A stretch of 64,000 nt of DNA, from assembly GCA_040382995.1 (NCBI GenBank), contig JBEIEK010000001.1, positions 21,919 through 85,918 of the forward strand, read 5' to 3'. This document shows, piece by piece, positions 591 through 15,847 of this stretch. Below the pieces are notes generated by a model, which was not told where the DNA came from, searched no databases, and saw only the letters and a list, made by a program, of their open reading frames with translations. The position numbers were made by a program, and so were the translations under genes. The stretch is from Planctomycetaceae bacterium (lineage in GTDB: Bacteria; Planctomycetota; Planctomycetia; Planctomycetales; Planctomycetaceae). The first letter of the stretch is position 1; each line of letters opens with the position of its first letter.

Positions 591-887
591 TCTGCCGATC
601 TCTGCTGTCATTCGTCTGAATCAGGCCCGCGAGTCATCCTCGTGGGCTTTTTTCGTTGGCAAATTGCCCTCTTCCCCCGAATTGGCTAACATCTGATCGC
701 GAGCCCCAGGAAGTTTGACGGCAAAGATTGCGTCTGCCTCCTGACCTCCCACCAGCCCGAGGCCCAACCCGAAAATGGATTGTGTCCCGAGCGGCTCGCC
801 CCATACCGCTCCTGCTCCCAACGGGCCTACCGCTCGTGTTCGCAAAGCGAACTCGCTGCCTGGCGTCCGACCGCCCCGCATACCAAT

Positions 888-3800
888 ATGCCCATCAAAG
901 TCGCTCTGTTCCATCAGACTTCCTATCACTACGACCGGCTGATCAGTCTCGGCCCTCAGGTAATTCGGCTCCGACCAGCCCCACACAGTCGCACTCCAAT
1001 CGACGCCTGGTCGCTCAAAGTCGAACCTGCCGGTCACTTCATCAACTGGCAACAGGACCCGTTCGGCAATTACCTCGCCAGACTCGTCTTCCCAGAGAAA
1101 ACCGACCACCTCATCGTCACCGTTGACGTCGTCGCTGACATGACCGTCATCAATCCCTTCGATTTCTTCCTCGAAGGCGAAGCCACTGATTTCCCGTTCA
1201 GCTACTCCGAAGAACTCGCTCAGGACCTCGAACCGTTCCTGCACCCCTGGTCCGATGCCCCGGAACTCCTGCAGTTCCGCCAGACCGTCGATTGCCGTCC
1301 CCGCCGCACCATCGACTTTCTCGTCAGCCTTAACCAGCTCGTTCAGCAGGCTGTCGGTTACACTATCCGGCTCGAACCCGGGGTCCAGACTCCAGCGCAG
1401 ACGCTGCAGAAACGCAGCGGCTCCTGCCGCGACTCCGCATGGCTGCTCGTCCACCTGCTCCGCAGCTTCGGACTTGCCGCACGCTTCGTCTCCGGCTACC
1501 TCATCCAGCTCACCGCCGACCAGCAGCCGCTCGAAGGCCCCGCCGGACCTGCCAGCGATTTCACGGATCTCCACGCCTGGACTGAGGTCTTCCTCCCCGG
1601 TGCCGGCTGGGTTGGTCTCGACCCCACCTCCGGACTGCTTACCGGCGAAGGCCACATTCCCCTCGCCGCCACTCCCGCTCCCCAGTCCGCCGCTCCCATC
1701 TCCGGCTGCGTCGACCCCGCCGAGGTCAGCTTTGACTTCCGCATGAGCATCACGCGGATTCACGAAGACCCCCGCGTCACCAAACCCTTCTCAGATGCCG
1801 ACTGGGAACGCATCGACCGCCTTGGCAGCGAAGTCGACAAACGACTCGCCGCCAGCGATGTCAGACTCACCATGGGCGGCGAACCCACTTTCGTCTCCAT
1901 CGATGACATGGAAGGTGCAGAATGGAATACGGCGGCCGTCGGACCCGCCAAACAGCGACTCTCCGATCAGCTCATTCGCCGCCTGCGTCAGCGGTTCGCA
2001 CCCGGCGCTCTCCTGCACTACGGACAAGGCAAATGGTACCCCGGCGAATCACTCCCCCGCTGGGCCTACACCTGCCTCTGGCGAACTGATGGACAGCCCA
2101 TCTGGAAGAATCCGGAGCTCCTCGCACCACTCCCGGATGCCGCCAACCAACCTGAGCGTTCCAGCAGCCCTGCCGTTGACGAACATCACGCCGCCGACTT
2201 CATGCTCGAACTCGCCCGCCGACTCGATGTCGACGATCGCTGGATCCGACCCGCGTTCGAGGACATGTTTCATCTGCTTGAACTCGAACAGCGACTGCCG
2301 GTCGATGTCGACCCGCGTAAATTTGATCCCGACACCGACGAAGACCGTCGCCGACTCTGCCGCGCACTCGAACGTGGCGTTCGCCGCCCCGCCGGCTTCG
2401 TGCTCCCGCTCAGCCGCGCGTGGTGGCAGTCCAATGCCCGCTGGACCAGTGGCTTCTGGCCGTTTCGGTCCCATCGCCTGTTCCTGATTCCCGGCGATTC
2501 CCCGATTGGACTGCGACTGCCCCTCGAATCTCTCCCCAGCGCCGCTGTTGACGTCCCGCCACTCGATCCATTCGCTGAACGTCCCAGCCTCCCCGGCTGC
2601 GCCGAAATTCGTCGCGCTCCCCAGGAACGCCTCGCCACGACACCCACAGACCCCTCCGCACCCCGACGCCAGACACAGATCCTGCAGCGTCTGGGACTTA
2701 TCGATGACCCCACCGAATCTTCCGACGATTATCCCGGCGGACCGGCATCCGCAGGACCGGTGATCCGCACCGCACTCTGCGTTGAACCTCGCAACGGTCG
2801 CCTGCATGTCTTCATGCCCCCCGTCGGCACTCTCGAAGACTACCTCGACCTCGTCGCCTCCATCGAAGACACCGCCGATCGCCTGCAACTCCCCGTGATC
2901 CTCGAAGGCTACCTGCCCCCACACGATCCCCGCATTCAGGTACTCAAGGTCACACCCGATCCCGGTGTTATCGAAGTCAACGTCCAGCCCGCCTCCAGCT
3001 GGGAACAATTGAAACACATCACCTGCGGACTCTACGACGACGCCCGCCACTGCCGCCTCGGCACGGAAAAGTTTCAGCTCGATGGACGCCATACCGGAAC
3101 CGGTGGCGGCAATCATCTCGTGCTCGGAGCCGCCACGCCGGCCGACAGCCCGTTCCTCCGACGCCCCGATCTGCTCAGGTCGATCATCGGCTTCTGGAAC
3201 AATCACCCGTCGCTCTCCTACCTCTTCTCCAGCCTGTTCATCGGCCCCACCAGCCAGGCCCCGCGTGTCGATGAAGGTCGCACCGATGCCCTGTCTGAAC
3301 TCGAAATTGCCTTCGACCACGTCCCCGAACCCGGCTGTGGCTGGGTCCCCTCGTGGCTCGTTGACCGAATCTTCCGCAACCTCCTCGTCGATCTCACCGG
3401 CAACACCCACCGCGCAGAAATCTGCATCGACAAACTTTACTCCCCAGACCACTCCGCCGGACGACTTGGACTGGTCGAATTCCGCGGCTTCGAAATGCCG
3501 CCGCACGAACGCATGAGCCTCGCCCAGCAGCTGCTCGTTCGCGCTCTCACCGTCGCCTTCTGGGAACAGCCCTTCCGCGAACCCCTCATTCACTGGAAGC
3601 ACGCCATTCACGACCGCTTCCTGCTCCCACACTGCCTCTGGCAGGACCTCGATCAGGTCGTTGGATACCTGCAAAACGCCGGTATCCCCATGGAAACCAG
3701 CTGGTTCGGAGCCCAGTTCGAATTCCGCTGTCCGCTCATCGGCACCTTCACAGCTGCCGGTGTCCACGTCGAAATCCGCCAGGCCCTTGAACCCTGGTAC

Positions 3801-4268
3801 GTACTCGGCGAAGAACCCGGAGGTGGCGGCACCACCCGCTTCGTCGACTCCTCCGTGGAACGCCTGCAGATCAAAGCCACCGGACTGCATGCCTCGCACC
3901 TCAGCATCGCAGTCAATGGTATTCGCGTCCCGCTGCAGCCCGGAACAGCACCCGGCGAATTCATTGGCGGCGTCCGCTACCGTGCATGGTGCCCACCCAG
4001 CTGCCTGCACCCCAATATCGGGGTGCATTCGCCGCTGATCATCGAAGTTGTCGACCGCGTCGCCCGCAGATCACTCGGTGGCTGCCGCTGCCACGTCGAT
4101 CACCCCGGCGGCAACAATCCCTCCGGCTACCCCATCAACGCACTCGCCGCCGAAAGTCGCCGCGCCGCTCGCTTCTTCCGCTTCGGACACTCCCCCGGAC
4201 AACTGGACCTTCGCGAACCACGCACGTCACAGTTCACCCCGTGGACCCTCGACCTGCGAAGACAATGA
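888..4268 (+). CDS. large transglutaminase-family protein (Bact_transglu_N + transglutaminase core + DUF2126-like C-terminal region)
   Basis: Start trimmed to ATG 888 (MPIKVALFHQTSYHYD, the typical family N-terminus). Core motifs GSCRDSAWLLVHLLRSFGLAARFVSGY and DLHAWTEVFLPGAGWVGLDPT supply the Cys, His and Asp. Long conserved-looking C-terminal region. Confidence 0.85.
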   Translation: MPIKVALFHQTSYHYDRLISLGPQVIRLRPAPHSRTPIDAWSLKVEPAGHFINWQQDPFGNYLARLVFPEKTDHLIVTVDVVADMTVINPFDFFLEGEATDFPFSYSEELAQDLEPFLHPWSDAPELLQFRQTVDCRPRRTIDFLVSLNQLVQQAVGYTIRLEPGVQTPAQTLQKRSGSCRDSAWLLVHLLRSFGLAARFVSGYLIQLTADQQPLEGPAGPASDFTDLHAWTEVFLPGAGWVGLDPTSGLLTGEGHIPLAATPAPQSAAPISGCVDPAEVSFDFRMSITRIHEDPRVTKPFSDADWERIDRLGSEVDKRLAASDVRLTMGGEPTFVSIDDMEGAEWNTAAVGPAKQRLSDQLIRRLRQRFAPGALLHYGQGKWYPGESLPRWAYTCLWRTDGQPIWKNPELLAPLPDAANQPERSSSPAVDEHHAADFMLELARRLDVDDRWIRPAFEDMFHLLELEQRLPVDVDPRKFDPDTDEDRRRLCRALERGVRRPAGFVLPLSRAWWQSNARWTSGFWPFRSHRLFLIPGDSPIGLRLPLESLPSAAVDVPPLDPFAERPSLPGCAEIRRAPQERLATTPTDPSAPRRQTQILQRLGLIDDPTESSDDYPGGPASAGPVIRTALCVEPRNGRLHVFMPPVGTLEDYLDLVASIEDTADRLQLPVILEGYLPPHDPRIQVLKVTPDPGVIEVNVQPASSWEQLKHITCGLYDDARHCRLGTEKFQLDGRHTGTGGGNHLVLGAATPADSPFLRRPDLLRSIIGFWNNHPSLSYLFSSLFIGPTSQAPRVDEGRTDALSELEIAFDHVPEPGCGWVPSWLVDRIFRNLLVDLTGNTHRAEICIDKLYSPDHSAGRLGLVEFRGFEMPPHERMSLAQQLLVRALTVAFWEQPFREPLIHWKHAIHDRFLLPHCLWQDLDQVVGYLQNAGIPMETSWFGAQFEFRCPLIGTFTAAGVHVEIRQALEPWYVLGEEPGGGGTTRFVDSSVERLQIKATGLHASHLSIAVNGIRVPLQPGTAPGEFIGGVRYRAWCPPSCLHPNIGVHSPLIIEVVDRVARRSLGGCRCHVDHPGGNNPSGYPINALAAESRRAARFFRFGHSPGQLDLREPRTSQFTPWTLDLRRQ

Positions 4269-4273
4269 ACTCT

Positions 4274-4300
4274 CCCCTCTCCCCTTCCTCGGGAGAGGGG
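4274..4300. terminator. G/C-tract hairpin just after the transglutaminase stop
   Basis: cccctctccc (4274-4283) pairs with gggagagggg (4291-4300) across a 7-nt loop. It starts 6 nt after TGA 4266-4268. No clear U-tract. Confidence 0.35.
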
Positions 4301-4370
4301 CAGGGGGTGAGGGGTGCAACACCACTGCAAAACGAGAGCACAACGGCCATAGTTGCCCTGTTTCCGCCGC

Positions 4371-4411
4371 TCACTTCGCCGCAAACACCTTCAGCGCCGC
4401 TTTCGCCACGC
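4371..4411. repeat. direct repeat, copy 1 (41 bp, identical to 7438-7478)
   Basis: tcacttcgccgcaaacaccttcagcgccgctttcgccacgc is present verbatim at both coordinates. Confidence 0.95.
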
Positions 4412-4458
4412 CAAGGGTTTTTCTGAATCTGACCGGTCGGGTTCTTTTCGGATTCGTC
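4371..4458 (-). pseudogene. frameshifted remnant of the 3' end of a TIM-barrel sugar-phosphate isomerase gene (paralogous to the end of 7438-8283)
   Basis: The minus strand reads ..DESEKNPTGQIQKNP.. versus ..EENEKNPIADIRECH.. in the intact gene. A 1-nt indel follows, then 41 nt identical to the intact gene end including the stop codon. No upstream gene body is present. Confidence 0.7.
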
Positions 4459-4510
4459 CGGCAGTGTTAACATCCTGTCCGAATCTTTTGATGATTATCG
4501 GGCAGCGAAT

Positions 4511-6355
4511 ATGCATGCAGTGAAGTTTCAACTCAATGCGGTAGACGTCCTTGCACGCTGGGTCCTCGATTTGCCAATCCTCGACTGGCAACCTGATGTT
4601 CAGAGGCTTCCGAGGATCACTGTGGTGCTTGCTGAGGGAGTCGCCACAGCTATTGAAGTAACGGGCATTCTTGGACGAGGTGGATTCGGAGTTGTGCTTG
4701 ACGCCACCGATGGAAACCGGCGCCTGGCCGTCAAGCTTCCGTTGCTGAAGGCCATGCAGCCAGGCTACGCTAAAGGTGTGCCGGCTGAGATCGATGCACT
4801 GCTGCGATCGGGAAATTTCCCTGAAGCAGTCCGTCGATTTCAGTCTGAACTGCAGAGCGTCAGGAGTCAATTGCAGGCCGGCCTGTCCACGCCAACAGCG
4901 ATAGCCTTTACAAAGAAATTCAGAAGAGAGTGCATTGCCCTGCAGAGACTGAAACACCCGAACATAGTGCATTTGAGATTTATAGGCGAAATTGACGCTG
5001 TTTTTTCAGGCCCTCACAGAACACTTCTGCCTTGCCTGGCCATGGACATCGTCGACGGGGCCAATCTGCAACAACGAATCATCGGATGCACCCAATCACT
5101 AAAGCAGGAGCTGCCGACGATCCTGAAAGTCTGCCGCGATACAGCACTCGCACTGGCCGCCTTACACGATATGGAACTCTGTCATCGCGATATCAGCTGG
5201 AACAACATTCTGCTCACGCGAGAGCAGGTCCCCGTTCTGATAGACCTCGGCAATGTCAACGATCCGGACGGGGCCGGAGATACGAGGCTGCAGATGTTTG
5301 AGGGAGTCCCGGGGGCTGCCATAGCATACACGCCGGGATTTGTAGCGCCGGAGGTTGTAGAGTCATGGGCACCCAACGAAGCGTCCGATCAATTCTCCCT
5401 CGGCGTCCTGCTTTATGTCTGGTGCCTCCGAGGAGACGTTTGGCCCTACAATCCGAAGCCTGTCGGAAGCTTCATCACCAATAATCCAAACGATCCCAAC
5501 CAACCCATACCGCTCGCAGACAGATTGAAAGCCGAGATTCGAGGAGTACGCAACAGCCCGGATAAGTGGCAACCGGACGAGCTGCAGGGACTTGGTCGAC
5601 TCTCGTCCATTGTCCAGCGCATGCTTAATAAGCAGCACCAGCATCGCTTCCCCTGCATGCGTGATGTGGCAGCTGAGCTACAGTCTCTGCTGATTGACCT
5701 CAAGGTAGAAAGATATTCTCAGTTCGATGATGTGGAACTTCAGCCGGTAGATGACTTTCTGGAACTTTGCCGACAAGTCAGTTTCCAAAGCCCCGGTGCA
5801 GCGCACGGCTGCCTTTTCCTGCAGCTGATGGTCCATCAGGCAAGGCTTCATCTGTCACGCTCCATCAGCCATATCTGGAAAACTCTGTTCAGCACATTTC
5901 ATGGCAGCGCGGATCTGAGCAGCCTTGCAGGAATGCAGACAGCGGTCGAACAAATTGACAAGATGGTTAATGACCTGAACACGGCATTCAGAGACATTCT
6001 CCTGAGCTTTGATAAAGTTCGAAACGACGCATCACTCACTCCACGCTTCGGTGGGCGACTCCGGCAACTCCTCGGACAGGTGCGGAATCACCTGCAGCCG
6101 CTGGTGACTCACAATCGTGAATGCAAAAGATCGCTGAAGGGTATGGTTGCATACACCCAATCCGTTCGGGGTAATGAAGATGTCGACCCGATTCTGCGAC
6201 AGAACGCTTCAAAACACGTGTCACAGCTTTGGGACATTGTCAGTGAGTTGCAGGCAGCACTTGGCGTGAGCGACTATGAATTGGCGCTGTACACCACGCG
6301 ATTGCGAGCCGTGCTGGCAAAAACTCGCACAGGTCACACAGGGAATGGCCGCTGA
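4511..6355 (+). CDS. atypical soluble Hanks-type Ser/Thr protein kinase with a roughly 210-aa helical C-terminal domain
   Basis: G-loop GRGGFGVV. Lys in LAVKLP. alphaC Glu in FRRECIALQRLKHPNIV. Catalytic loop HRDISWNNILL. DLG in place of DFG. FVAPE. SDQFSLGVLLY. No transmembrane or signal segment seen. Confidence 0.8.
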   Translation: MHAVKFQLNAVDVLARWVLDLPILDWQPDVQRLPRITVVLAEGVATAIEVTGILGRGGFGVVLDATDGNRRLAVKLPLLKAMQPGYAKGVPAEIDALLRSGNFPEAVRRFQSELQSVRSQLQAGLSTPTAIAFTKKFRRECIALQRLKHPNIVHLRFIGEIDAVFSGPHRTLLPCLAMDIVDGANLQQRIIGCTQSLKQELPTILKVCRDTALALAALHDMELCHRDISWNNILLTREQVPVLIDLGNVNDPDGAGDTRLQMFEGVPGAAIAYTPGFVAPEVVESWAPNEASDQFSLGVLLYVWCLRGDVWPYNPKPVGSFITNNPNDPNQPIPLADRLKAEIRGVRNSPDKWQPDELQGLGRLSSIVQRMLNKQHQHRFPCMRDVAAELQSLLIDLKVERYSQFDDVELQPVDDFLELCRQVSFQSPGAAHGCLFLQLMVHQARLHLSRSISHIWKTLFSTFHGSADLSSLAGMQTAVEQIDKMVNDLNTAFRDILLSFDKVRNDASLTPRFGGRLRQLLGQVRNHLQPLVTHNRECKRSLKGMVAYTQSVRGNEDVDPILRQNASKHVSQLWDIVSELQAALGVSDYELALYTTRLRAVLAKTRTGHTGNGR

Positions 6356-6382
6356 CGAGGGCAACCTTGTGCCACTCCCCGC

Positions 6383-6976
6383 TTGACTGTAGAACCACTA
6401 CCGCTAAAATTCCTCCTCCCTTCGCGGCTCCTCTCCTTTCCTCATGCAGCAGAACCCAGCCCAGTGAACCAGTCGATGCAAGATGCTCGAAATGCTGGTG
6501 AGTGCTTCTATTTGAAGGTTTTCCTTCAAATACAGGTCGCTGCTCTGGAGTACCTGATCGAGGATTTGTCGATACGGGCCCGCGAATGTCTCAGAGAGAG
6601 GGATTTTACGTTCGCCAAAGCCAGACGTCATCGTCAGGCTTTCGATGAGGCCATCCAGCGGTACCGGCGAATGATTTGGCCAATCGCGACAAGCGGGTTG
6701 GAGATTTCGGTCACGGAACAGGTGGAAAAATCCATCCGCAGCGTCGTTGTCCTCGTACGAAACGAATGCCCAAATGTTGATCCTGCAGATTCTGCCGACG
6801 GCCCCCTTCTTCCAGCGGACTGGAAAGCCCGTCTGAATAAATGTGCCAGTCTCGCCGATAATTTGGCTCGTGATTTGCGGCATTTATTGGACATCGCCAG
6901 TGATCTGCTTTCTCAAAAGGCCGAAATTTCCCGTCGAATCGAAGCATTCGTGCGAGAGATTTCCGCTTCAAGTTGA
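6383..6976 (+). CDS. hypothetical helical protein (island gene 2)
   Basis: The ORF starts at TTG 6383, with an alternative ATG at 6476 (MQDARNAGE). Same strand as the kinase. Charged, helix-rich composition. No family recognised. Confidence 0.5.
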   Translation: MTVEPLPLKFLLPSRLLSFPHAAEPSPVNQSMQDARNAGECFYLKVFLQIQVAALEYLIEDLSIRARECLRERDFTFAKARRHRQAFDEAIQRYRRMIWPIATSGLEISVTEQVEKSIRSVVVLVRNECPNVDPADSADGPLLPADWKARLNKCASLADNLARDLRHLLDIASDLLSQKAEISRRIEAFVREISASS

Positions 6977-7335
6977 TATCCCCCAAACAGGTTTGGATTA
7001 TGAAAGTACTGGGAGATCCTGTCGTAGATACACTCCTGAATGAGTTCCGTGAGGCTGTCAGTCAGCTGGAAAATCAATACCCGCGGCCAAACTCCAATGG
7101 TCAAACGGCTGTCAACCTTGTCAGACACCTCTGCGAACTTTCGCGCGATGTGATGTTTCATCTCGGCCCACCGCGATACGCCGAACTGCAGCAACTCAGG
7201 GACGCAGCCCTTGAGTTTGACCGCGCGATCAACGTTATTCAGCAATACTCCCCTACACCACTGCCCGATTTTTTGGCGGACTACTGCGATAATTTCAGCC
7301 AGCGTGCCGAACAGTGTCGCCAGGGTCTTCGGTGA
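6973..7335 (+). CDS. hypothetical helical protein (island gene 3)
   Basis: TTG 6973 overlaps the preceding stop (TTGA). Alternative ATG at 7000 (MKVLGDPVV). No family recognised. A hairpin follows at 7399-7423. Confidence 0.5.
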   Translation: MISPKQVWIMKVLGDPVVDTLLNEFREAVSQLENQYPRPNSNGQTAVNLVRHLCELSRDVMFHLGPPRYAELQQLRDAALEFDRAINVIQQYSPTPLPDFLADYCDNFSQRAEQCRQGLR

Positions 7336-7398
7336 CCCCCAGAAGTCTGCTCTCGGTGTTTCTCTGATAACCCGAAAAGCACACCACCAGCACTGGAA

Positions 7399-7423
7399 GC
7401 CGCCGAATCGTTGATTCGGCGGC
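7399..7423. terminator. perfect 11-bp stem / 3-nt loop hairpin between convergent genes
   Basis: gccgccgaatc-gtt-gattcggcggc. It lies between the stop of island gene 3 (7335) and the stop of the isomerase gene (7438). Confidence 0.5.
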
Positions 7424-7437
7424 CCCGTTTGCCTCAA

Positions 7438-7478
7438 TCACTTCGCCGCAAACACCTTCAGCGCCGCTTTCGCCACGC
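7438..7478. repeat. direct repeat, copy 2 (41 bp, identical to 4371-4411)
   Basis: Forms the last 13 codons plus the stop of the isomerase gene. Confidence 0.95.
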
Positions 7479-8283
7479 TATGGCATTCCCGAATGTCAGC
7501 AATCGGGTTCTTTTCGTTCTCTTCATACTCCAGCGACAGCGCTCCGTTGGCCGGGAAACCAGCCTGCTGCAACTCCGTAAACACCGCTTCCACGTCCAGA
7601 TGCCCCTTGCCAAGGATCACTCCCCTGGTCTTGTCCTGCATCTCGGCGAAATCCTTCAGGTGGATGCCGTACAGTCGCCCCTTCAGCAGCCGAATGACCT
7701 CGGGACCGCTTTGTCCCGAACGGATGTAGTGCCCCAGATCCGCACAGGCCCCAATCCGCTCATCACGACGCTCGATCACACGCAGCACGTCAATCGCCTT
7801 GTTGTAACGATGCGTCGGACCATGGTTGTGGATCCCCACGCGAATGTCAAACTCCTTCACCAGCTCATCCAGGCTGTCAAACGAATCGAAATCAGGATCC
7901 GCCGTCAGACAGGCAATCCCCAGCTTCTTCGCGAATTCAAACATCTTCCGATTGGCGGCCGCATCCTTCGTAAAGCGGTTCACACCGTGAGCTGAAATCG
8001 ACAGCCCCAGGTCCGTAACCTGCTTGCGAACGGCAGCGATTTCCTCGTCCGAGGCATTCAGGGGCAGCATGCCGCTGTAAAACTCCACAGACTCAAAACC
8101 CAGCTCGCTGGCATATTTCAGCGCCTCGTCCCGCTTGAAACCACGCAGGGAATACAGCTGGATGCCAAGTCTGGGTCGCTCGGCAGATGCGGCAAGGGAC
8201 AGCCGCGGAAACGTTCCGCAGACCGCCATGGTTCCGACAAGCGATGCAGTGTTCAGGAAGGTACGCCGAGATTGAAGCGACAT
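7438..8283 (-). CDS. Tat-exported sugar phosphate isomerase/epimerase (xylose isomerase-like TIM barrel)
   Basis: ATG 8283. Twin-arginine signal MSLQSRRTFLNTASLVG. LGIQLYSLR, ISAHGV and GIHNHG motifs are typical of the AP_endonuc_2/TIM-barrel family. Confidence 0.8.
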   Translation of the reverse strand: MSLQSRRTFLNTASLVGTMAVCGTFPRLSLAASAERPRLGIQLYSLRGFKRDEALKYASELGFESVEFYSGMLPLNASDEEIAAVRKQVTDLGLSISAHGVNRFTKDAAANRKMFEFAKKLGIACLTADPDFDSFDSLDELVKEFDIRVGIHNHGPTHRYNKAIDVLRVIERRDERIGACADLGHYIRSGQSGPEVIRLLKGRLYGIHLKDFAEMQDKTRGVILGKGHLDVEAVFTELQQAGFPANGALSLEYEENEKNPIADIRECHSVAKAALKVFAAK

Positions 8284-8388
8284 CTCTTACTCCGTGTGGG
8301 TGGGCGGGGAAGGTGGGTGGATAAACCTGACGCTCACGAGTCTACAGGGGCAGGGCTGTCAACACAAACAATCTGTTTGGAACGAGTG

Positions 8389-9801
8389 TCAGTTGGGCTG
8401 CACCACCGCCTCAAGCTGCGTCGGTACCGGGATCACGCCACTTTGGTGCTCAGCCACCGCCCTGCGGATCTGTTCGATCACTTCAGGATGCTGAGCGGCC
8501 ACGTTCCACTTTTCTCCCGGGTCCACTCGCAGTTCAAACAGCAGCGGCGGATCATGAGCATCCGGTTTCGGCGTGTTGTAGCCGGGCCGCGTCAGAAAAT
8601 GGGCCTTCCATGGACCCAGTCGGCAGGCATACAAAGTACTCCCGCGATAGTACATGAAAGCTCCGCGCTGAACGTCACCTGTGCCAAACAGCAGTGGTCG
8701 GATGTCCATTCCATCCAGCTGTGTGTCGGGCAGCGAAGTACCCGTGATGGCCGCGATGGTCGGCAGCAGATCCATGGTGAGCCCCATTTCGTGCTGCACC
8801 CGGCCCGCTGGAATCTTTCCCGGCCACCACATCAGCCCCGGCACACGCATGCCACCCTCCCAGGTGGAGCCCTTGCCGTCTCTGAGCATTCCTGCGGAAC
8901 CGCCGTGGGAATCAAAGATCAGCCACGGACCGTTGTCGCTGCTGAAGACCACCAGCGTCTGCTGGGCAAGTCCTTCATCGCGAAGCGTCTGCAGGATCTG
9001 CCCGACACTCCAGTCCAGCTCTTCCACAACGTCCCCGTAAATGCCAGCCAGACTGCGTCCCCGAAACTCTGCGGATGCAAACAGCGGCACATGCGGAAAG
9101 TTATGGGCCATGTAAAGAAAAAACGGCTTTGATTTGCTGGATTTGATGAAGGAAATCGCTTCTTCGGTGTAACGTTTTGTAAGCTGCCGCTGATCCGGTC
9201 GCTCCTCTGCCACCTCAGCACCCCGAATCAGCTGGGTCTGCCAGAATTCCGTCTGCTCCGCAAAAAACTTCGCTCGATCCTGCGGCGCATCCGGGGCCGG
9301 ACGCATGTCGTTCGAATAGGGCATGCCAAAATAGCTGTCAAACCCGTGCTGCAGCGGCAGATGCTCAGGCAGATGCCCAAGATGCCACTTGCCGATGATC
9401 GCCGTGGAATAGCCGGCCGGCTTGAGCATTTCAGCGATGGTGATTTCCTGCGCGGGCAGGCCACCTATTGAGTTGTTCCGCAGCACGCGAAACTGGTCAT
9501 GACACATTCCGCTGCGAATCGGGTAACGCCCCGTCAGCAAAGCGGTGCGGCTTGGAGTGCACACTTCGGCCGCGGAATAAAACTCCGTAAACCGCATCCC
9601 CTCCGCAGCCATCCGATCCAGATGCGGTGTGCGAATCGACGGATGTCCATAACAGCCCAGATCGCCGTACCCCAGGTCGTCAGCGTAGATGATCACGATG
9701 TTCGGTTGCTCTGCCGCCACCAGCGGATTCAGCAGCAGCAGCGTGATCAGGGTGCAGAACGACAAAACAGAGTTCCAGAAACCAGTCGTCAGAGAAAGCA
9801 T
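8389..9801 (-). CDS. arylsulfatase A-family sulfatase
   Basis: PNIVIIYADDLGYGDLGCYGH plus the formylglycine motif CTPSRTALLTGR. Start trimmed to ATG 9801 ahead of the signal peptide. Confidence 0.9.
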   Translation of the reverse strand: MLSLTTGFWNSVLSFCTLITLLLLNPLVAAEQPNIVIIYADDLGYGDLGCYGHPSIRTPHLDRMAAEGMRFTEFYSAAEVCTPSRTALLTGRYPIRSGMCHDQFRVLRNNSIGGLPAQEITIAEMLKPAGYSTAIIGKWHLGHLPEHLPLQHGFDSYFGMPYSNDMRPAPDAPQDRAKFFAEQTEFWQTQLIRGAEVAEERPDQRQLTKRYTEEAISFIKSSKSKPFFLYMAHNFPHVPLFASAEFRGRSLAGIYGDVVEELDWSVGQILQTLRDEGLAQQTLVVFSSDNGPWLIFDSHGGSAGMLRDGKGSTWEGGMRVPGLMWWPGKIPAGRVQHEMGLTMDLLPTIAAITGTSLPDTQLDGMDIRPLLFGTGDVQRGAFMYYRGSTLYACRLGPWKAHFLTRPGYNTPKPDAHDPPLLFELRVDPGEKWNVAAQHPEVIEQIRRAVAEHQSGVIPVPTQLEAVVQPN

Positions 9802-9866: not shown

Positions 9867-11051
9867 TCATTCACCCGCTTCCCGGTGCTCGCTGCTGACA
9901 GTCAATCCGCGGGCGTCCTTTGCTGCCACGTAGTATGCCCGCGCGTTTTCCGGGATCGTGGCTGAGATGGTGCCGTCGGTCAGCGTTGCCGGAAGCGATT
10001 TCCATTCGCGGTTCTGCCATGTGCCATCAGCGGTGGTGTAGTGCAGCTGAACCTCGCGGATTTCCGTGGCGGACTGGACTGTGGCGTTCAGTTGGAAGCC
10101 AGCCTGCTGCAGGGGGCCGATGGTCGCAAGGGCCTGACCGCCCTTCAGCTGGCTGTCGATGAACAGATCCACCTCGGGAAATGTCCAGATATGCCCGTGG
10201 GGCAGACGCGGGATGACGGCAAGTGTCCGCAGGGAGGGCTGCACCAGCCGACAGGATTTGCGATAGCTGTCCAGCGGATAAGCGAAATCATTGGTGCCGT
10301 TCAGGAACAGGATCGGACAGCGGACCTGGGAAAGATAGCTGGAGGGATCAAAGTGCGTCACCCATCGCTCTCGCAGTTCGGGTGACATAGGGGTGAAACG
10401 GGGTTGAGTCCACACGCTGTTGTCTGCCAGAAATCCGCAGCCGTAGACGGGCACTGCGACTTTCAGCCGGTCGTCAAGGCTGGCCACAAGACAGGTCAGA
10501 TAACCGCCCCAGCTGATGCCGGTGATGCCGATGCGACTGGCGTCGACGGCGGGCTGAGCGGCCAGCAGGGAATGACCGCGAATTACGGCCGCCACTGCAT
10601 GATAACTCCACATCTCCCGAGCCTCCGCGTCAGTGAAGGAGCGGAATTTGGTTTCGTCGGACTGATCGGGGCCACCATCAGAAAGTCGTCCATCAGGACC
10701 GTGCCCTGCCAGATCCATGGCCAGGGCTGCATAGCCCCGGTTGGCCCAGTGCAGAGCCCAGTCACGAAATGCCCTGCCACCTCCGCCGTGCACAAGCACC
10801 ACGGCGGGGAAGGGCCCGTCACCAACTGGCTGTGCATACCACGCAAAGACTCGAGTCGGCTTCCCCTGCAGCGGTTCACCCGCGTAGTACACCGGACGTA
10901 CCAACCCGTCCGCCGGACCGAATTCGGCAGGGGGAGTTTGTTTCAGCGCGAGCAGATCCCATGGCCCGGTCCTGTCGGCTGCTGTTGCGTGCAGACTGGT
11001 GACGATTGGCAGAAGAGTGATTGCAAGCAGAAACTGACGACGGCGTATCAT
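9867..11051 (-). CDS. secreted alpha/beta hydrolase (acetyl-xylan-esterase / dienelactone-hydrolase-like)
   Basis: Start trimmed to ATG 11051 (MIRRRQFLLAITLLP). VLVHGGGG oxyanion region. Nucleophile elbow GISWGG. C-terminal beta-rich extension. Confidence 0.75.
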   Translation of the reverse strand: MIRRRQFLLAITLLPIVTSLHATAADRTGPWDLLALKQTPPAEFGPADGLVRPVYYAGEPLQGKPTRVFAWYAQPVGDGPFPAVVLVHGGGGRAFRDWALHWANRGYAALAMDLAGHGPDGRLSDGGPDQSDETKFRSFTDAEAREMWSYHAVAAVIRGHSLLAAQPAVDASRIGITGISWGGYLTCLVASLDDRLKVAVPVYGCGFLADNSVWTQPRFTPMSPELRERWVTHFDPSSYLSQVRCPILFLNGTNDFAYPLDSYRKSCRLVQPSLRTLAVIPRLPHGHIWTFPEVDLFIDSQLKGGQALATIGPLQQAGFQLNATVQSATEIREVQLHYTTADGTWQNREWKSLPATLTDGTISATIPENARAYYVAAKDARGLTVSSEHREAGE

Positions 11052-11491
11052 GGCAGGACAATCTGTTGTGGGGAACGGGAGCGTGGAGCCGGGAGGGCCG
11101 TTATTGTATGACGGACTTCCTGTCCGTCGAGCGGTTTCGCGACGGACTTCCAGTCTGTCGTACGGAAGCACAGGGATGCGGCTCGGCAGGAGCTTCGCCC
11201 TGGGTTGGCGAAACGGTGTCAAAATCGGCGTTGTGGGCTGTTTTTCGCGGGGCCCGTTGACTTGACAACCGATCGCCACTGCTCACGAAACCACAAGAGC
11301 GCGGAGCCGATGTCGGACTCGGCCCAGTCCTGCAGATCCAGCAGGTGCTGCAGGCGCTCCTGCAGTGTCTCAGGGAGTCGCGGCTCCTGCCGATGCTCAG
11401 GTCAGTGGAGTCTGCAGCGTCGTCAGCGAGCGGATCGTCTCCGCCGCGGTTGGTCTCAATCCAGAACTTCTTTCTAATTCCCCAAACAGCT

Positions 11492-11526
11492 GTTGCACTG
11501 TGTGACATATTGTCATACAGTGCAAC
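11492..11526. promoter_or_regulatory. candidate GntR operator: 16-bp inverted repeat with one mismatch and a 3-bp spacer
   Basis: gttgcactgtgtgaca-tat-tgtcatacagtgcaac, about 30 nt upstream of the proposed GntR start. Confidence 0.45.
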
Positions 11527-11555
11527 TGCTGAACAAACAGCAAGGGAGCTGCCTG

Positions 11556-11948
11556 GTGCTGATCAATGTGGACTTTAACAGCGGCGAACCTGTTACTCGA
11601 CAGGTCGTTGCGCAGATCAAGTGGTTGGTTGCCACAGGCCACCTGGCGGTCGGTGAAAAGCTTCCGTCCGTACGAGATCTCGCGGTTCAGCTGAAGGTCA
11701 ACCCAACCACGGTCAGTCGAATTTACTCTGAGTTATCTGCTGAAGACGTGATCGTACTGAGGCAGGGGCAAGGGGCGTTTGTTTCATCACGACCGTCGAT
11801 GATTCATCGCGCTGAAGCGAAGAAGCAGGTTCGTGAGCTGATTCGCAGGATGCTGTCAGAAGCAGTTCGGCTGGGCCTGAGTCATGATGACATCCGGCAA
11901 TTGATTGGAAGTGAATTCGAGAACCTTCCGGAGGCTTCCCATGAATGA
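11556..11948 (+). CDS. GntR-family transcriptional regulator, short YtrA-like subfamily
   Basis: Winged HTH: LPSVRDLAVQLKVNPTTVSRIYSELSAEDVIVLRQGQGAFV. I prefer GTG 11556, which lies 7 nt after GGGAG 11544-11548. The track ORF starts at TTG 11493, inside the palindrome. Confidence 0.8.
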   Translation: MLINVDFNSGEPVTRQVVAQIKWLVATGHLAVGEKLPSVRDLAVQLKVNPTTVSRIYSELSAEDVIVLRQGQGAFVSSRPSMIHRAEAKKQVRELIRRMLSEAVRLGLSHDDIRQLIGSEFENLPEASHE

Positions 11949-12858
11949 TGCCTTGATCACGGTCAGAAACCTCTGCCGGAGGTTTGGCCGAACTGAAGCT
12001 GTAAACAATGTCAGTCTGGAAGTGATTCGCGGTTCAATTCACGGACTTCTCGGAACAAACGGAGCCGGAAAGACGACACTGATTCGATTGCTGATGGGGC
12101 ATTTGTATCCGGACAGTGGCGACGTGCTGGTTCTGGGTCAGCCTCCTCGTCGGCACTGCAGTGAGAGACTGCGTCGAATCGCTTATGTCTCGGACCAAAT
12201 GCAGCTGCCATCTCGGTCCTGTCTGGCCGACATTCTTCGGCTGAATGAGCGTTTCTTTCCCAGCTGGAATTCACGACTGGCGACGCGACTGACAAAGGAA
12301 TTCGACATTGATGCCTCCGCAGTCTTTTCGCGGCTGTCGCTGGGCCAGAAGCGTCGCGTTGTACTGCTTCAGGCGATTTGCCAGGGGGCCGAGCTATTGA
12401 TTCTGGATGAACCTCTTTCGGGGCTGGATGCGATCATTCGTCGGCAATGCCTGGACATGCTGCTGGAAGCGACGGTGGAGCATGGCCAGACAATCGTGGT
12501 GTCGTCGCATCTTCTGCACGACATTGAACGAATTGTCGACACGGTCACCATCATGTCAGCGGGGCGAGTTTTTGCCGAAGGAAATCTCGAAGACTTGAAA
12601 CGCCGAATGCGTCGAATTCGCATCGAGGGATCCGTGTCATCAGACCAGGAACAGGCACTCACTCAATTCAGGATCGTTCGCCGACAAATGAAACATCAGA
12701 TCACGGACCTGATCGTAGACGATTATCAGGAAGCGACTCAGCATTCTCTCGTGAACACTCTGGGCGACAGGATCATTGTTGAGCACATGAACCTTGAAGA
12801 CATCTTCGTCGAACTCAGCCTGAAGACAGCGGAACAATCAAGGAAAACAGCCCTATGA
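11941..12858 (+). CDS. ABC transporter ATP-binding protein
   Basis: Walker A GTNGAGKTT. Signature LSLGQKRR. Walker B LLILDEP. ATG 11941 overlaps the GntR stop by 8 nt. Confidence 0.9.
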   Translation: MNDALITVRNLCRRFGRTEAVNNVSLEVIRGSIHGLLGTNGAGKTTLIRLLMGHLYPDSGDVLVLGQPPRRHCSERLRRIAYVSDQMQLPSRSCLADILRLNERFFPSWNSRLATRLTKEFDIDASAVFSRLSLGQKRRVVLLQAICQGAELLILDEPLSGLDAIIRRQCLDMLLEATVEHGQTIVVSSHLLHDIERIVDTVTIMSAGRVFAEGNLEDLKRRMRRIRIEGSVSSDQEQALTQFRIVRRQMKHQITDLIVDDYQEATQHSLVNTLGDRIIVEHMNLEDIFVELSLKTAEQSRKTAL

Positions 12859-13511
12859 GTTTGCCTCTCATGCGTTACCTGTTATCGGCGATGAAACTCG
12901 AGCTTCTGGCACTGTCCGGATTGCTGACTGCGAGCACGCTCCTGCAGCCCGACCCGATGACAAGTGACCAGACGCTCTACTATGAGGAGCAATTCACCCA
13001 GTTTCTGATCTATCTGTTCGTTGTGTTGGGCCTGTTGTTGCCGGTGCGAGTTTTCGTGAATTCAGTCGGTGTTGCAGACTGGTTAAGTTCACGCGGACTG
13101 ACACGGCGACAGCAGTTTTTCACACGACTGGCAACTGGATTGATCGTCATTGCGTCATCGTTTGTCTGGGTTGGATCTCTTCAGCTGCTCGGAATACGAC
13201 AGTTTGTCCAGCTGGCATTCGAGTCGCCGTGGTTTCCGATGGTTCGGTGGTACGAGCTGCTCGAATTGCCTGCCTTCGCGCCCTACGCCTGCCTTCCCTT
13301 CTTTGTGACAACGCTGGTGTTGACGGCGACCATGTCAGGTCAGTCATTGTTCCCCGCTTTCAGAATTGTGCTGGCGATCATCGCGTCTGCTCTCGTTGTC
13401 ACAGTTCTCAGTGCACCTCATCTCTGGACATGGATGGCCTGGCCAGCCATGGCTTTGTGCGCCGTATTGGCCTGCGGATTGTGGACGCAGAGCGAACATC
13501 ACAGTCAATAA
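12855..13511 (+). CDS. 6-TM membrane protein, probable ABC-2-like permease partner
   Basis: ATGA overlap with the ATPase gene. About six hydrophobic helices by eye. No family recognised. Confidence 0.65.
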   Translation: MSLPLMRYLLSAMKLELLALSGLLTASTLLQPDPMTSDQTLYYEEQFTQFLIYLFVVLGLLLPVRVFVNSVGVADWLSSRGLTRRQQFFTRLATGLIVIASSFVWVGSLQLLGIRQFVQLAFESPWFPMVRWYELLELPAFAPYACLPFFVTTLVLTATMSGQSLFPAFRIVLAIIASALVVTVLSAPHLWTWMAWPAMALCAVLACGLWTQSEHHSQ

Positions 13512-13521
13512 GGAACGTTCC

Positions 13522-15369
13522 ATGCACGCCAAAGCAGAAGGCCGCAGAATACTCACATTTGCCTGCGTCACCATATTGCTCATCCACGTCGCGGCCTTGT
13601 ATCACGAGACCGCAGGTGGATGGTTGGGGCCTCGACAATCGGCGGAGACGCCAACTTTCATCGCCATCACTGTCTGCGCGGGACTGCTGATTGCCGGAAT
13701 GGTGTGGTGGAAAGGAGCCGCCGCCATGCCGGATGTGATCCTGGTCCTGACCGGCAGCTTCCTCATTGATCAGACTGCAGGGTCTTTCAAGCTGCTTCCA
13801 CAACAGGTGGAAACACAGCCAGTCGCCCCTTCACCAGTCGCCATTTCAATTGAGAGCCGGTATGAAGGGACCGAAGTCCGCTGCAACGGCGTCCTGCTTG
13901 GAAAGACCCCGCTCCGAATCACCCTCGACGAATTCGCTGAGCGAGTATTGCCTGCGCAGGAGCCCCCCGTTCAGGAGGCGGCCTTTGAATGGTCCGCATC
14001 TTCATCGCCGGATTCACTGGCTTCGATGAATTGGAGCGCCCTGCCATTTGATCCGTCAAATCCGAAAAAAAACGACAGTGGAACACCCACGAACATGATT
14101 CTGAAACGCATTTCAACCGGCCGATACTTCTGGGATTTCAGGGTCGGTGAATTCAGGGCAGCATCGGACCACATCGATTTTCACAAGAACAACAACGAAA
14201 TTATCGTCAACACCAGGGGATGGGAAACTCTCCGGCGACACGCCGAAGCACTCAGGACGCTGGCAAAAGAGGAATCCGTCGATCCGCTCGTGGCTTATGC
14301 AGATCACATTGACTCACATCCCCCACTCCGTCAGGTACTAACTCCACCAATTCCGCAGAAACGCACGCGGCATGTTTTTCGCATGAGCGAGCTGGAGCGG
14401 TCCTCCAAAGAACCACTCGGGTTTGAAGACGCGGTCATGCGGCGAGATTGGCTGTGGGTTGCCCGATCAAATGATCCAAAATCCGTGCCGTTGCTGAAAT
14501 GGTATCTGGAAAGGCATCGACGGCAGTCAGGGGACGATCGATCTCTGCTGCATTTCAAAGGGCCTGTCCTGTCCCTGCTGATGGAGTCTGAACAGCCCGA
14601 GATTCAGCAGCTGGTTCGGAACATCATGACCTCGGCTGAATGGCCACATTATCAGCTGCTGGAGTACTACATCGAACGGCAATTGGAGGCGGGTGTGAAT
14701 CGCGAAGAGCTGACTTCGTGGCTGGCCGAGGGAAGGAGCGATCTGACGCGTCACTTTCTTCCGCTGCTGATTCGTGTGGCTGGTTCGAACTTTTCAGAAG
14801 TCGTCGGACAGTACTCAGAACCCGACTGGTGGTCCTGCATGGTATCCAGGCCCGAAGTTCCTGAGAGTGTCGTCAACTACCTTGCAAAGCAGTTACGAGA
14901 GGCGCCCACCCCAGCACTTTACCGTGGAATTGCTCAGCTCGACAAACATCCAGTCCTGTATGTCGCCATTTCCGAAACCGATCTCAGCACCGCGGCCCGA
15001 GTGCGGGATTTCGTTCCGTTCATTGGCTCGTGGTCCGGGTGGGTCAATCAGGCGCTGTCTGAAGCCGCAGCAAAGGCCTTTGCGAAGGCCACCGATCAAT
15101 CGCACATCACTGAACTGGCTCAACTTCTGGCATACGTGCCAAATGACATCAGCCTGGCGACGCTGGAAGCATACGCCGGTCCGGAAAACAAAGTCGTCGC
15201 CGAATGCGAACAGCAGGTGCGGAATACCTTAAAGCGTCAACGGGAGTCTCTGGAGGAGCAACTTCAGTTGGCCAGGGACCTGCTGGCCGGAAAAAAGTCC
15301 TCTCAGGATCTGGTGAACCCGATTCGCCTTGAATGGAAACACGGAAAGTACGTAAGAACACAACCCTGA
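13522..15369 (+). CDS. membrane protein with PEGA-like domain and long helical-repeat C-terminal region
   Basis: Start trimmed to ATG 13522, preceded by AAGGAA. Three N-terminal hydrophobic helices. ISIESRYEGTEVRCNGVLLGKTPLRITL is PEGA-like. The rest is helix-rich. Confidence 0.6.
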   Translation: MHAKAEGRRILTFACVTILLIHVAALYHETAGGWLGPRQSAETPTFIAITVCAGLLIAGMVWWKGAAAMPDVILVLTGSFLIDQTAGSFKLLPQQVETQPVAPSPVAISIESRYEGTEVRCNGVLLGKTPLRITLDEFAERVLPAQEPPVQEAAFEWSASSSPDSLASMNWSALPFDPSNPKKNDSGTPTNMILKRISTGRYFWDFRVGEFRAASDHIDFHKNNNEIIVNTRGWETLRRHAEALRTLAKEESVDPLVAYADHIDSHPPLRQVLTPPIPQKRTRHVFRMSELERSSKEPLGFEDAVMRRDWLWVARSNDPKSVPLLKWYLERHRRQSGDDRSLLHFKGPVLSLLMESEQPEIQQLVRNIMTSAEWPHYQLLEYYIERQLEAGVNREELTSWLAEGRSDLTRHFLPLLIRVAGSNFSEVVGQYSEPDWWSCMVSRPEVPESVVNYLAKQLREAPTPALYRGIAQLDKHPVLYVAISETDLSTAARVRDFVPFIGSWSGWVNQALSEAAAKAFAKATDQSHITELAQLLAYVPNDISLATLEAYAGPENKVVAECEQQVRNTLKRQRESLEEQLQLARDLLAGKKSSQDLVNPIRLEWKHGKYVRTQP

Positions 15370-15847
15370 CAGCACAACGCGGCAGAAAGAATCCCGTACT
15401 GGATCATTGCTGCCAGAATTCCCGTTACCCAGGAGTGTGGCCGGACTTGAGGTGTGAGACCAGCGAAAACTGGCAGTGTGGGAAATTGGCCTTCATGCAA
15501 TTTCCTTCGAAAAAGTTAAGTCACCTGAATTTGCTGCTGCGTCACCAGTTGCGGCAAAGGCATTCTGCCAGAGCGGGTGGGGATGTGGTCGGCACGTTCA
15601 CACGAGTTCCGCGGCCGAGCGGAAGCATTGGGTGAAAAACCATTTTTGAAGTCTTCTTCGCCGTAGCCATTCGACATCACCGTCTTTGCCGACAGCGTGG
15701 ACTATGACTTCACATCGAACGGCTATGCCGTTGAATTTGCAATGTTGAATATCGACGCCGCACTTTGCACATGACACGCTCGCATTTTCTCTGACACTTC
15801 GCCAGACTTCCGCGGTCATTTTTCATCATCCGCAGGAAGCAGCCCCC

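Follow-up and report, generated by a model that had tools for sequence, protein, structure and literature searches.

A candidate non-autonomous integrative islet in the 3′ end of an isomerase-like gene of a freshwater planctomycete

Results

A direct repeat brackets a three-gene islet

We analyzed a 64-kb stretch of the genome of a freshwater planctomycete (contig JBEIEK010000001.1 of assembly GCA_040382995.1), hereafter called the window, in which a 3-kb islet separates a transglutaminase-like gene from a xylose-isomerase-like gene. The islet is present in some strains and cleanly missing from near-identical ones, and it seems to be mobile by means of a gene tail that it carries. Its three genes, encoding a Ser/Thr protein kinase and two helical proteins termed ORF2 and ORF3 (ORF, open reading frame), lie on the same strand between the two copies of a direct repeat (Table 1). 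No other ORF of plausible size was found in 4412-7437.

The core of the repeat is a perfect 41-mer, TCACTTCGCCGCAAACACCTTCAGCGCCGCTTTCGCCACGC, which occurs exactly twice in the 64 kb when up to three mismatches are allowed; the expectation in shuffled sequence is 0 copies, and no other substantial direct repeat was found in the window. This core is embedded in an imperfect direct repeat of 96 nt (4355-4450 versus 7422-7516), with approximately 85% identity and a Smith-Waterman z of 38 against shuffles, whose identical stretches are 41 nt and 13 nt long. Beyond the stop codon the homology extends for 16 nt (4355-4370 versus 7422-7437, 10/16 matches). Into the isomerase-like gene it runs for approximately 39 nt with one indel (4412-4450 versus 7479-7516), closing with a perfect 13-mer (4438-4450 and 7504-7516). 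Past both ends the identity is that of chance (6/20 and 4/20). The distal copy, copy A, is a frameshifted pseudo-end of the isomerase-like gene. An earlier note on this DNA, made by reading the sequence, had claimed that the last 41 nt of the isomerase gene, including its stop codon, recur verbatim, and that a decayed continuation with a perfect 13-mer makes the distal copy a frameshifted fragment; the alignments bear out both statements. The note would have given up its reading of the repeat as an integration scar if the 41-mer were a dispersed repeat, which it is not, with two copies in the window.

Two hairpins lie next to the repeat. That at 7399-7423 folds at -28 kcal/mol (z = -3.9), and the 96-nt repeat ends where this hairpin starts. 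It sits inside the islet and belongs to the element, which corrects the earlier note, and in filled strains it forms a terminator-like structure after the isomerase-like stop codon. The hairpin at 4274-4300, in the host spacer, folds at -32 kcal/mol. It is part of a G/C-rich element (CCCCTCTCCCC..GGGAGAGGGG..GGGGTGAGGGG, 4274-4316) of which the window has a single copy. In a related species, L002 (approximately 10990-11190), the region downstream of the isomerase-like gene contains two related copies, in both orientations, and the element looks like a REP-like (repetitive extragenic palindromic) intergenic element of the clade. The 41-mer itself shows neither dyad symmetry nor a notable fold, and terminal inverted repeats were not found in the islet. 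Both spacers next to the repeat copies are exactly 102 nt long, that from the copy A stop codon to the transglutaminase stop codon (4269-4370) and that from the isomerase-like stop codon to the ORF3 stop codon (7336-7437). In the filled locus of a sister species, L003, the second spacer is likewise 102 nt and the first is only 19 nt, and the equality is probably a coincidence.

Table 1. Features of the islet and its borders, with positions in the window. The attachment-site (att) labels follow the model proposed in the Discussion.
Feature	Positions	Strand	Remarks
Transglutaminase-like / DUF2126 gene, left flanking host gene	780-4268	+	Pfam DUF2126, Bact_transglu_N, Transglut_core
Native host spacer, proposed right arm of attB	4269-4370		Includes G/C-rich hairpin 4274-4300; stays by the transglutaminase-like gene in empty strains
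Copy A of the 41-mer, proposed attL core	4371-4411	-	Displaced last 38 nt and stop codon of the isomerase-like gene
Element-borne left arm of proposed attP	4412-4450	-	Decayed, frameshifted pseudo-copy of isomerase codons ~255-268; ends in the 13-mer CGGGTTCTTTTCG (4438-4450)
Cargo gene 1, Hanks-type Ser/Thr protein kinase, 614 aa	4511-6355	+	Pfam Pkinase 1.4e-22
Cargo gene 2 (ORF2), all-helical protein without recognized family, 166 aa	6476-6976	+	Beside the kinase in all contexts
Cargo gene 3 (ORF3), four-helix-bundle protein without recognized family, 111 aa	7000-7335	+	AlphaFold pLDDT (predicted local distance difference test) 89.9
Element-borne right arm of proposed attP	7393-7437	-	15 nt and 14-bp-stem hairpin (7399-7423); not in same-species empty sites
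Copy B of the 41-mer, proposed attR core	7438-7478	-	Functional 3′ end of the isomerase-like gene: last 38 nt and stop codon
Target gene, xylose-isomerase-like TIM-barrel (AP_endonuc_2), 281 aa	7438-8283	-	Pfam 1.3e-23

Filled and empty alleles occur within the species

Same-species contigs were obtained by exact-sequence look-up of the isomerase-like protein; they come from many lake metagenomes and are 98.6-99.9% identical to the window. Seven other contigs are filled like the window, including L104, L105, L106, L109 and L110, and three are empty (L107, L111 and L113). Samples with the filled allele include JGI 3300037541, 3300035689 and 3300035663 and Logan ERR14789966, SRR27423419 and DRR783858. 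At the empty sites, the 3′ end of the isomerase-like gene (the left flank of copy B) leads into a single 41-mer, followed by the right flank of copy A, read from 4370 to 4269, and the transglutaminase-like gene; the left arm, 4412-4450, is not present there. A reciprocal crossover inside the 41-mer would be expected to produce exactly this junction as attB. The earlier note had proposed looking in relatives for an empty site with a single 41-mer and would have withdrawn its reading had all of them been filled; the three empty contigs carry the predicted junction.

The two alleles stand on nearly the same background. On the isomerase side, the empty L113 shows no difference from the filled L104-L106 over 1322 nt, and on the transglutaminase side, the empty L107 differs from the filled L104 and L106 at 2-4 of 2569 nt. 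Between two filled strains, the window and L104, there are 4 single-nucleotide polymorphisms (SNPs) in the 3108 nt between the repeats (0.13%) versus 93 in 9738 nt outside (0.96%; Fisher p = 1.4e-7, and p = 1.4e-4 against the adjacent 3 kb alone), a 7-fold lower divergence in the islet than in its flanks. The limits of the SNP-poor tract, after 4292 and before 7594, correspond to the two repeat copies. The low SNP density between the repeats indicates an islet that moved as a repeat-bounded unit and is much younger than its flanks. Together, the empty sites and this young tract largely support the view, put forward in the earlier note, that the islet integrated into the gene end.

All 21 contigs encoding an identical ORF3 carry it at this locus. 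Independent Logan unitigs of 3086 nt span 4382-7467, and their 19-nt end overlap is that predicted for a 41-nt repeat at k = 31; the 31-mer unitigs L086, L121 and L122 are too short in k to resolve the repeat. Since more than 20 independent assemblies, the Logan unitigs among them, show the same structure, the repeat is not an assembly artifact of a single dataset. Contigs L108 and L112 end exactly at the isomerase-like stop codon, that is, at the outer edge of the 41-mer, as expected of an assembly graph that branches into filled and empty paths; both alleles may coexist in those samples. In the filled same-species contig L115, the last 47 nt (1-47), to the left of window position 4296, are completely unlike the transglutaminase end; either the hairpin was the site of a rearrangement or the contig end could be chimeric.

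The locus in related species

Species-representative genomes were scanned with the isomerase-like protein, giving four close ones (L001-L004). The transglutaminase-like gene adjoins the isomerase-like gene in L001 and L004, as it does in the empty L107 and L111, and the two are convergent in the empty-site genomes. L001 (approximately 82% nucleotide identity) and L004 (approximately 85%) have no cassette, and the genes there lie 173-192 nt apart. L003 (approximately 88%) carries the whole cassette at the same place. Its distal repeat copy is decayed throughout (78% identity over 65 nt, longest identity 12 nt) and lies only 19 nt from the transglutaminase stop codon. A 12-mer of the left arm is invariant across every A and B copy of the window and L003. 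Protein identity between the window and L003 is alike in the cargo (90-94%) and the flanks (93-94%). The earlier note had left three options for the element: mobilized in trans, a decayed island, or the product of another duplication mechanism. The first fits the species of the window, and the second fits L003, whose distal copy has no perfect core.

Four-fold-degenerate sites place the window, L003 and L004 at roughly equal distances from one another and give a mosaic pattern around the locus, which indicates recombination between species-level lineages there. Over 780-8900, the window groups with L003 in the 3′ half of the transglutaminase-like gene (0.73), and L003 groups with L004 in a middle segment (0.72).

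The C-terminus of the isomerase-like protein, EYEENEKNPIADIRECH.VAKAALKVFAAK, is kept in close relatives. The window protein reads HSVAK where all close relatives read HAVAK (codon Ser-268, 7476-7481), and copies A and B of the window have in common a derived GC dinucleotide at the inner edge of the 41-mer. An earlier exchange of sequence between the host copy and the element copy may have left this change as its footprint.

Origin of the attachment region

The element-borne hairpin arm is homologous to native sequence downstream of the isomerase-like gene in L001 (26/32, p < 0.001), and this homology ceases at approximately 7393. The host arm is homologous to native sequence downstream of the same gene in L002 (p < 0.001). 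In L003, the hairpin arm is kept together with the islet, and the other arm is unrelated. We infer from these alignments that the islet carries a fragment of approximately 124 nt that was captured at the isomerase locus in a related host and includes, besides the stop codon and the terminator, about 80 nt of the coding end. On the simplest reading, the non-functional part of the captured fragment would have decayed, and the part that becomes the working gene end would have been conserved.

A secondary gene conversion with its right border near 7392 was considered, since L003 lacks a perfect core and the native hairpin of L001 matches 7393-7437; the derived dinucleotide shared by the window copies also suggested a conversion patch. 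This reading was rejected because, in the light of the same-species empty sites, the hairpin arm belongs to the element. The match to L001 is more readily understood as marking where the captured attP came from, and conversion is kept only in the deletion-based alternative discussed below.

Searches for a recombinase, a helper element and RNA targets

Pfam scans of the islet and of all long ORFs of the window found no integrase, transposase or other recombinase; the only recombination protein found was the housekeeping RuvB. The claim of the earlier note that no integrase, transposase or terminal inverted repeats lie inside the islet is confirmed, and the absence of a recombinase extends to the 64 kb. 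Recombination would have to act in trans. A recombinase-like fold in ORF2 or ORF3 was considered and rejected, as both are plain helical bundles (pLDDT 86-90) with no Protein Data Bank (PDB) match at E ≤ 0.001.

No tRNA or transfer-messenger RNA gene was found in the window and no Rfam match in 3500-8500; the att core is not inside such a gene, as it would be in an island targeting one. Among 80 isomerase loci with the conserved C-terminus, none was found to have a helper element at this site; the att core is shared by L001-L004 alone, and none of these four has an integrase-bearing insert. Neither L001-L004 nor 30 same-species contigs had a cognate autonomous integrative and conjugative element (ICE), integrative and mobilizable element (IME) or prophage at the site. 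In IMG/VR, neither the cassette nor the att core was found.

The cargo genes

The islet kinase has all catalytic motifs (GRGGFG, LAVK, HRD, DLG and APE). PknB-like PDB matches cover only residues 132-345, and the C-terminal half (approximately 270 aa) is uncharacterized. ORF2 (AlphaFold model with long helices, pLDDT 85.6) and ORF3 have no match in Pfam, PADLOC or NCBIfam and no Foldseek match at E ≤ 0.001. Alignments of ORF3 show an invariant LCELSR motif and conserved cysteines.

The kinase matched PD-T4-6 (5e-30) and mad6 in PADLOC, and its score against NCBIfam MAD6 was 55.6 bits, below the cutoff of 460. The PADLOC matches are generic because an unrelated chromosomal kinase from the same window (59316-63440) scores far better against PD-T4-6 (6e-86). 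An identity as the PD-T4-6 or mad6 (MADS) anti-phage system was rejected on this ground, and ORF2 and ORF3 match no known system.

The cassette in other genomes

Only 5 full-length kinase homologues were found among 5.8 billion proteins, and the ORF3 family has 26 members. The cassette is known from about nine other, unrelated contexts, most of them in neighborhoods with planctomycete-typical genes; L081, L083, L084, L087, L094, L095 and L101 have the same three genes in the same order in differing neighborhoods. The kinase, ORF2 and ORF3 form a rare conserved module, so far found mostly in planctomycete-like genomes. No conserved termini or inverted repeats were found across nine cassette contexts.

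A second case of a duplicated gene end was found in L083 (ENA ERZ25070530), whose kinase is 37% identical to that of the window. There, the 3′ end of a convergent CDP-alcohol phosphatidyltransferase gene is duplicated over approximately 95 nt (1250-1344 and 4894-4988) at 80-83% identity (z = 35). The duplicated segments span the stop codon and one copy lies upstream of the kinase, in the geometry of the window. No flanking duplication above shuffled controls was found in L081, L084, L087, L094 or L101.

L095 is flanked by a 34-nt multi-copy repeat that is not a gene end (2686-2719, 6074-6105, 6174-6207, 7645-7678 and 13641-13663), and most assemblies of this locus, seventeen contigs of 2-5 kb, break at it. 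In L087, a 41-nt palindromic sequence, 95% identical at 6-46 and 6774-6814 of the 6.96-kb contig, brackets the cassette homologue together with NADAR and HNH genes. A metagenome scan with an ORF3 profile gave only degraded or repeat-ridden copies (L089-L093): an internal deletion in L089 (650-1960) fuses the kinase start to the ORF2 end, and L091-L093 keep ORF2 and ORF3 amid dense short repeats with a truncated kinase.

Base composition

The G+C content of the islet is 53.6%, versus a mean of 59.2% (standard deviation 2.1%) for all 3-kb windows, and it is the lowest 3-kb stretch of the window. At third codon positions, G+C is 0.52-0.58 in the islet genes versus 0.66-0.72 in their neighbors, and the tetranucleotide distance of the islet is in the top 3%. 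The compositional shift reported in the earlier note is thus real and outside the normal range of the window, but milder than its spot counts had implied.

Discussion

Our analysis revealed a discrete islet in a gene end, with both hybrid junctions and the empty site, that is polymorphic within the species, younger than its flanks, and devoid of a recombinase in cis. We propose, with a probability of roughly 0.6, that 4412-7437 together with one 41-mer is a small non-autonomous integrative islet that recombines in trans through a captured attP. In the excised form, attP would read, on the minus strand, from 4450 to 4412, through the 41-mer, and from 7437 to 7393. Integration would occur by a single reciprocal, Campbell-type crossover within the 41 nt common to attP and the chromosomal gene end. 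The element would then provide the stop codon region and the hairpin for an intact isomerase-like gene, and the host downstream spacer would be displaced by 3 kb, behind the decayed pseudo-end. The reverse crossover would regenerate the empty site. The crossover would be catalyzed in trans, within the 41-nt identical core of the 96-nt stretch of 85% homology, and the attP segment may originally have been captured by imprecise excision from the gene end of a related host.

Several points weigh against this proposal. All data are assembled chromosome states, among which no excised circle or attP junction was seen, and deletion alone would yield an identical empty site. The L003 islet occupies the same site with flank-like divergence (90-94% amino acid identity) and a copy A without a perfect core, which indicates that the insertion is old there. 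Instead of being the scar of an integration, the 41-nt identity in the window could have arisen later as a patch of gene conversion, and the derived GC (HSVAK) common to both copies implies sequence exchange between them. Ordinary homologous recombination in the flanking genes can also give presence and absence on similar backgrounds. Six other cassette contexts have no flanking duplication. For a circle to integrate efficiently through RecA, 41 nt is a short stretch.

As for the catalyst, we slightly favor host recombination over 41-96 nt of homology rather than an unlinked site-specific recombinase. With the latter, the anatomy would be the same and the crossover would be performed by a tyrosine or serine recombinase encoded elsewhere, on a helper prophage, ICE or IME using the same att site, which would make the islet comparable to a cis-mobilizable element (CIME) or a pseudo-SCC element (SCC, staphylococcal cassette chromosome). 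We regard this as possible, if doubtful. A core at a gene 3′ end that restores the gene is the classic signature of integrase-driven islands, and the core here is exactly the gene 3′ end with its stop codon, the gene being restored. The clean reciprocal crossover products at all three empty sites, the one strict site in 21 contigs, and the convergent orientation of the cassette to its target gene in both the window and L083 point the same way. However, no recombinase was found in the islet or the window, no helper element at the 80 isomerase loci, and neither att core nor cassette in IMG/VR, and the 41-mer is without dyad symmetry or notable fold. The unrelated target gene of L083 would require a different helper. 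Moreover, arms of 96 nt at 85% host-like identity are needed by homology-driven recombination and are superfluous for a site-specific recombinase. Host recombination acting on the 96-nt homology accounts for these data as well. We lean toward it because the attP arms are long host-like homology, because no helper occupies the site, because L083 uses an unrelated target gene, and because the H47 island of Escherichia coli provides an experimental precedent (PMC3191183, PMC5426353).

A less likely alternative, which we consider improbable, is loss without mobility. The islet would have entered once, long ago, in an ancestor common to L003; the 41 nt would have been re-homogenized by gene conversion; and recurrent deletion, via RecA or replication slippage, would have produced the empty alleles, with the low islet diversity reflecting a local sweep or recombination. 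This account agrees with the L003 islet at the same site, its uniformly decayed distal copy and its flank-like protein divergence, and with the derived dinucleotide that the window copies share at the tract edge and that is not in any relative. A deletion between the two 41-mers would leave precisely the empty junction that was found. In addition, the window and L003 show raised four-fold-site identity over approximately 2760-8120, a region wider than the islet, which points to flank-mediated homologous exchange between lineages. In contrast, the SNP-poor tract of the two filled strains ends at the repeat copies and not at arbitrary points of the flanks, and the retained spacer 4269-4370 is homologous to native downstream DNA of L002, as expected of an original attB arm. 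In L003, the hairpin arm is kept with the islet and the other arm is wholly different (19 nt), as for an element arm and a host arm, and L004, which is empty, is separated from the window and from L003 by about the same distance that separates the latter two. Loss alone thus needs an old insertion, a conversion patch and recurrent deletion, and it explains the young tract and the retained arm less well. That the repeat is instead a long target-site duplication from transposition-like or end-joining insertion, or an assembly artifact, is very improbable: the window and L083 cassettes do have duplications of similar length (approximately 95-96 nt), but the copies are not equivalent, each being a reciprocal chimera of a host and an element arm with the empty site as their hybrid, no transposase or terminal inverted repeats were found in the islet, the cassettes share no conserved ends across contexts, and the structure is seen in more than 20 independent assemblies, including the 3086-nt Logan unitigs.

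The proposed non-autonomous islet fits the att-flanked, non-autonomous class of CIME-like elements and, more closely, the “parasitic” small islands of the H47 type. The E. coli H47 genomic island, which encodes microcin H47, has no recombinase, and it excises and integrates via identity stretches in long imperfect direct repeats, as shown experimentally, also in a recA-deficient host (PMC3191183, PMC5426353). Both elements are small islands without an integrase or excisionase and have long imperfect direct repeats with stretches of perfect identity, in which the crossover takes place in H47 and is proposed to do so in the islet. Hybrid “attC” empty sites occur in other strains in the case of H47, and the corresponding hybrid sites were found in the island-free strains here. 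Mobility through host-supplied functions, the “parasitic strategy” of H47, is proposed for the islet as well. In contrast, the H47 island is 13 kb long, belongs to Enterobacteria, and has repeats that are not described as a gene 3′ end, whereas the islet is 3 kb long, belongs to uncultured Planctomycetota, and has a repeat that is the coding end of its target, with the element giving the stop codon region and a terminator-like hairpin. The islet architecture also recurs at a second, unrelated gene in L083. The mobility of H47 is experimental, and that of the islet is inferred from population genomics alone.

Integrase-less SCC-like elements are comparable to CIMEs as att-flanked elements. CIMEs are att-flanked remnants mobilized by a related ICE, IME or recombinase (PMC5704250). 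The islet is likewise att-flanked and lacks recombination and transfer genes; like CIMEs and SCC-like elements, it has attL/attR-like direct repeats at the 3′ end of a protein gene and varies among strains. It differs in that no cognate helper or recombinase for the site was found in the window, the 80 related loci or IMG/VR, and in that nothing obvious marks it as a remnant left by deletion, since these three genes and no others recur as a unit in about ten unrelated contexts.

SGI1 at trmE represents the integrase-encoding islands that insert at a gene 3′ end and bring a replacement gene end (PMC8409611). The islet resembles them in 3′-end integration, in a gene kept intact by the carried copy of its end, in the displaced partial copy at the far border, and in atypical base composition. 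It is far smaller, however, and has no self-encoded integrase by the att site and no excisionase, replication or mobilization genes. As its ORFs encode a kinase and two helical bundles and no integrase, it falls outside the integrase-type, self-mobile islands. Nor does it have the transposase and terminal inverted repeats of a transposon or insertion sequence, and its repeat copies are reciprocal chimeras. In the orphan effector-immunity arrays of the Vibrio cholerae type VI secretion system, gene ends are displaced by homologous and illegitimate recombination (PMC5361080). There, too, incoming DNA with the conserved 3′ part of a resident gene recombines and strands the resident 3′ fragment downstream. 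However, the displaced end in the arrays is a different toxin tip, the arrays grow stepwise, and no reciprocal empty/filled polymorphism is described, whereas the two ends at the islet code for the same sequence and the event is reversible.

A broader and more tentative idea is that the cassette represents a class of recombinase-free mobile islets spreading by “gene-end capture”, with L083 as a recurrent case and a cargo that perhaps serves conflict or defense. Imprecise excision would take the last ~80-100 nt and the terminator of a convergent neighbor gene as a portable homology att site, and host recombination would then insert the islet into the same gene of naive relatives, leaving the gene intact. 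The duplication of near-equal length in L083 would mean a recurrent, possibly cassette-promoted process and not a coincidence. The kinase module resembles accessory conflict or defense cargo in its behavior and could be a new kinase-based module of that kind.

Small variable islets of bacteria mostly have no recognizable mobility genes, and their arrival at precise sites is usually unexplained. The present locus is an unusually complete natural data set in this respect, offering both alleles on near-identical backgrounds, both hybrid junctions, an inferred attP visibly derived from a host gene end and its terminator, the L003 fossil and a second, independent case in L083. If recombination is host-supplied, any small cassette could gain site-specific mobility by capturing approximately 100 nt of a conserved neighbor gene. 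The only experimental precedent that we found is the E. coli H47 island, and the present case would carry the principle over to a distant phylum and to a target at a coding end.

Two further features of the window were observed. A second low-G+C stretch (11500-15500, 53-55%) carries genes for a GntR regulator and an ABC ATPase as well as a 667-aa ORF that Pfam does not match. Since this stretch is conserved beside the locus in same-species contigs, it is no obvious island. The chromosomal kinase at 59316-63440(-), used above for comparison, is a fusion protein of 1374 aa that joins a Ser/Thr kinase with an AAA_16 ATPase and TPR repeats, and it adjoins a homologue of bacterial lipoxygenases at 56264-58033(-) (Pfam 7e-51).

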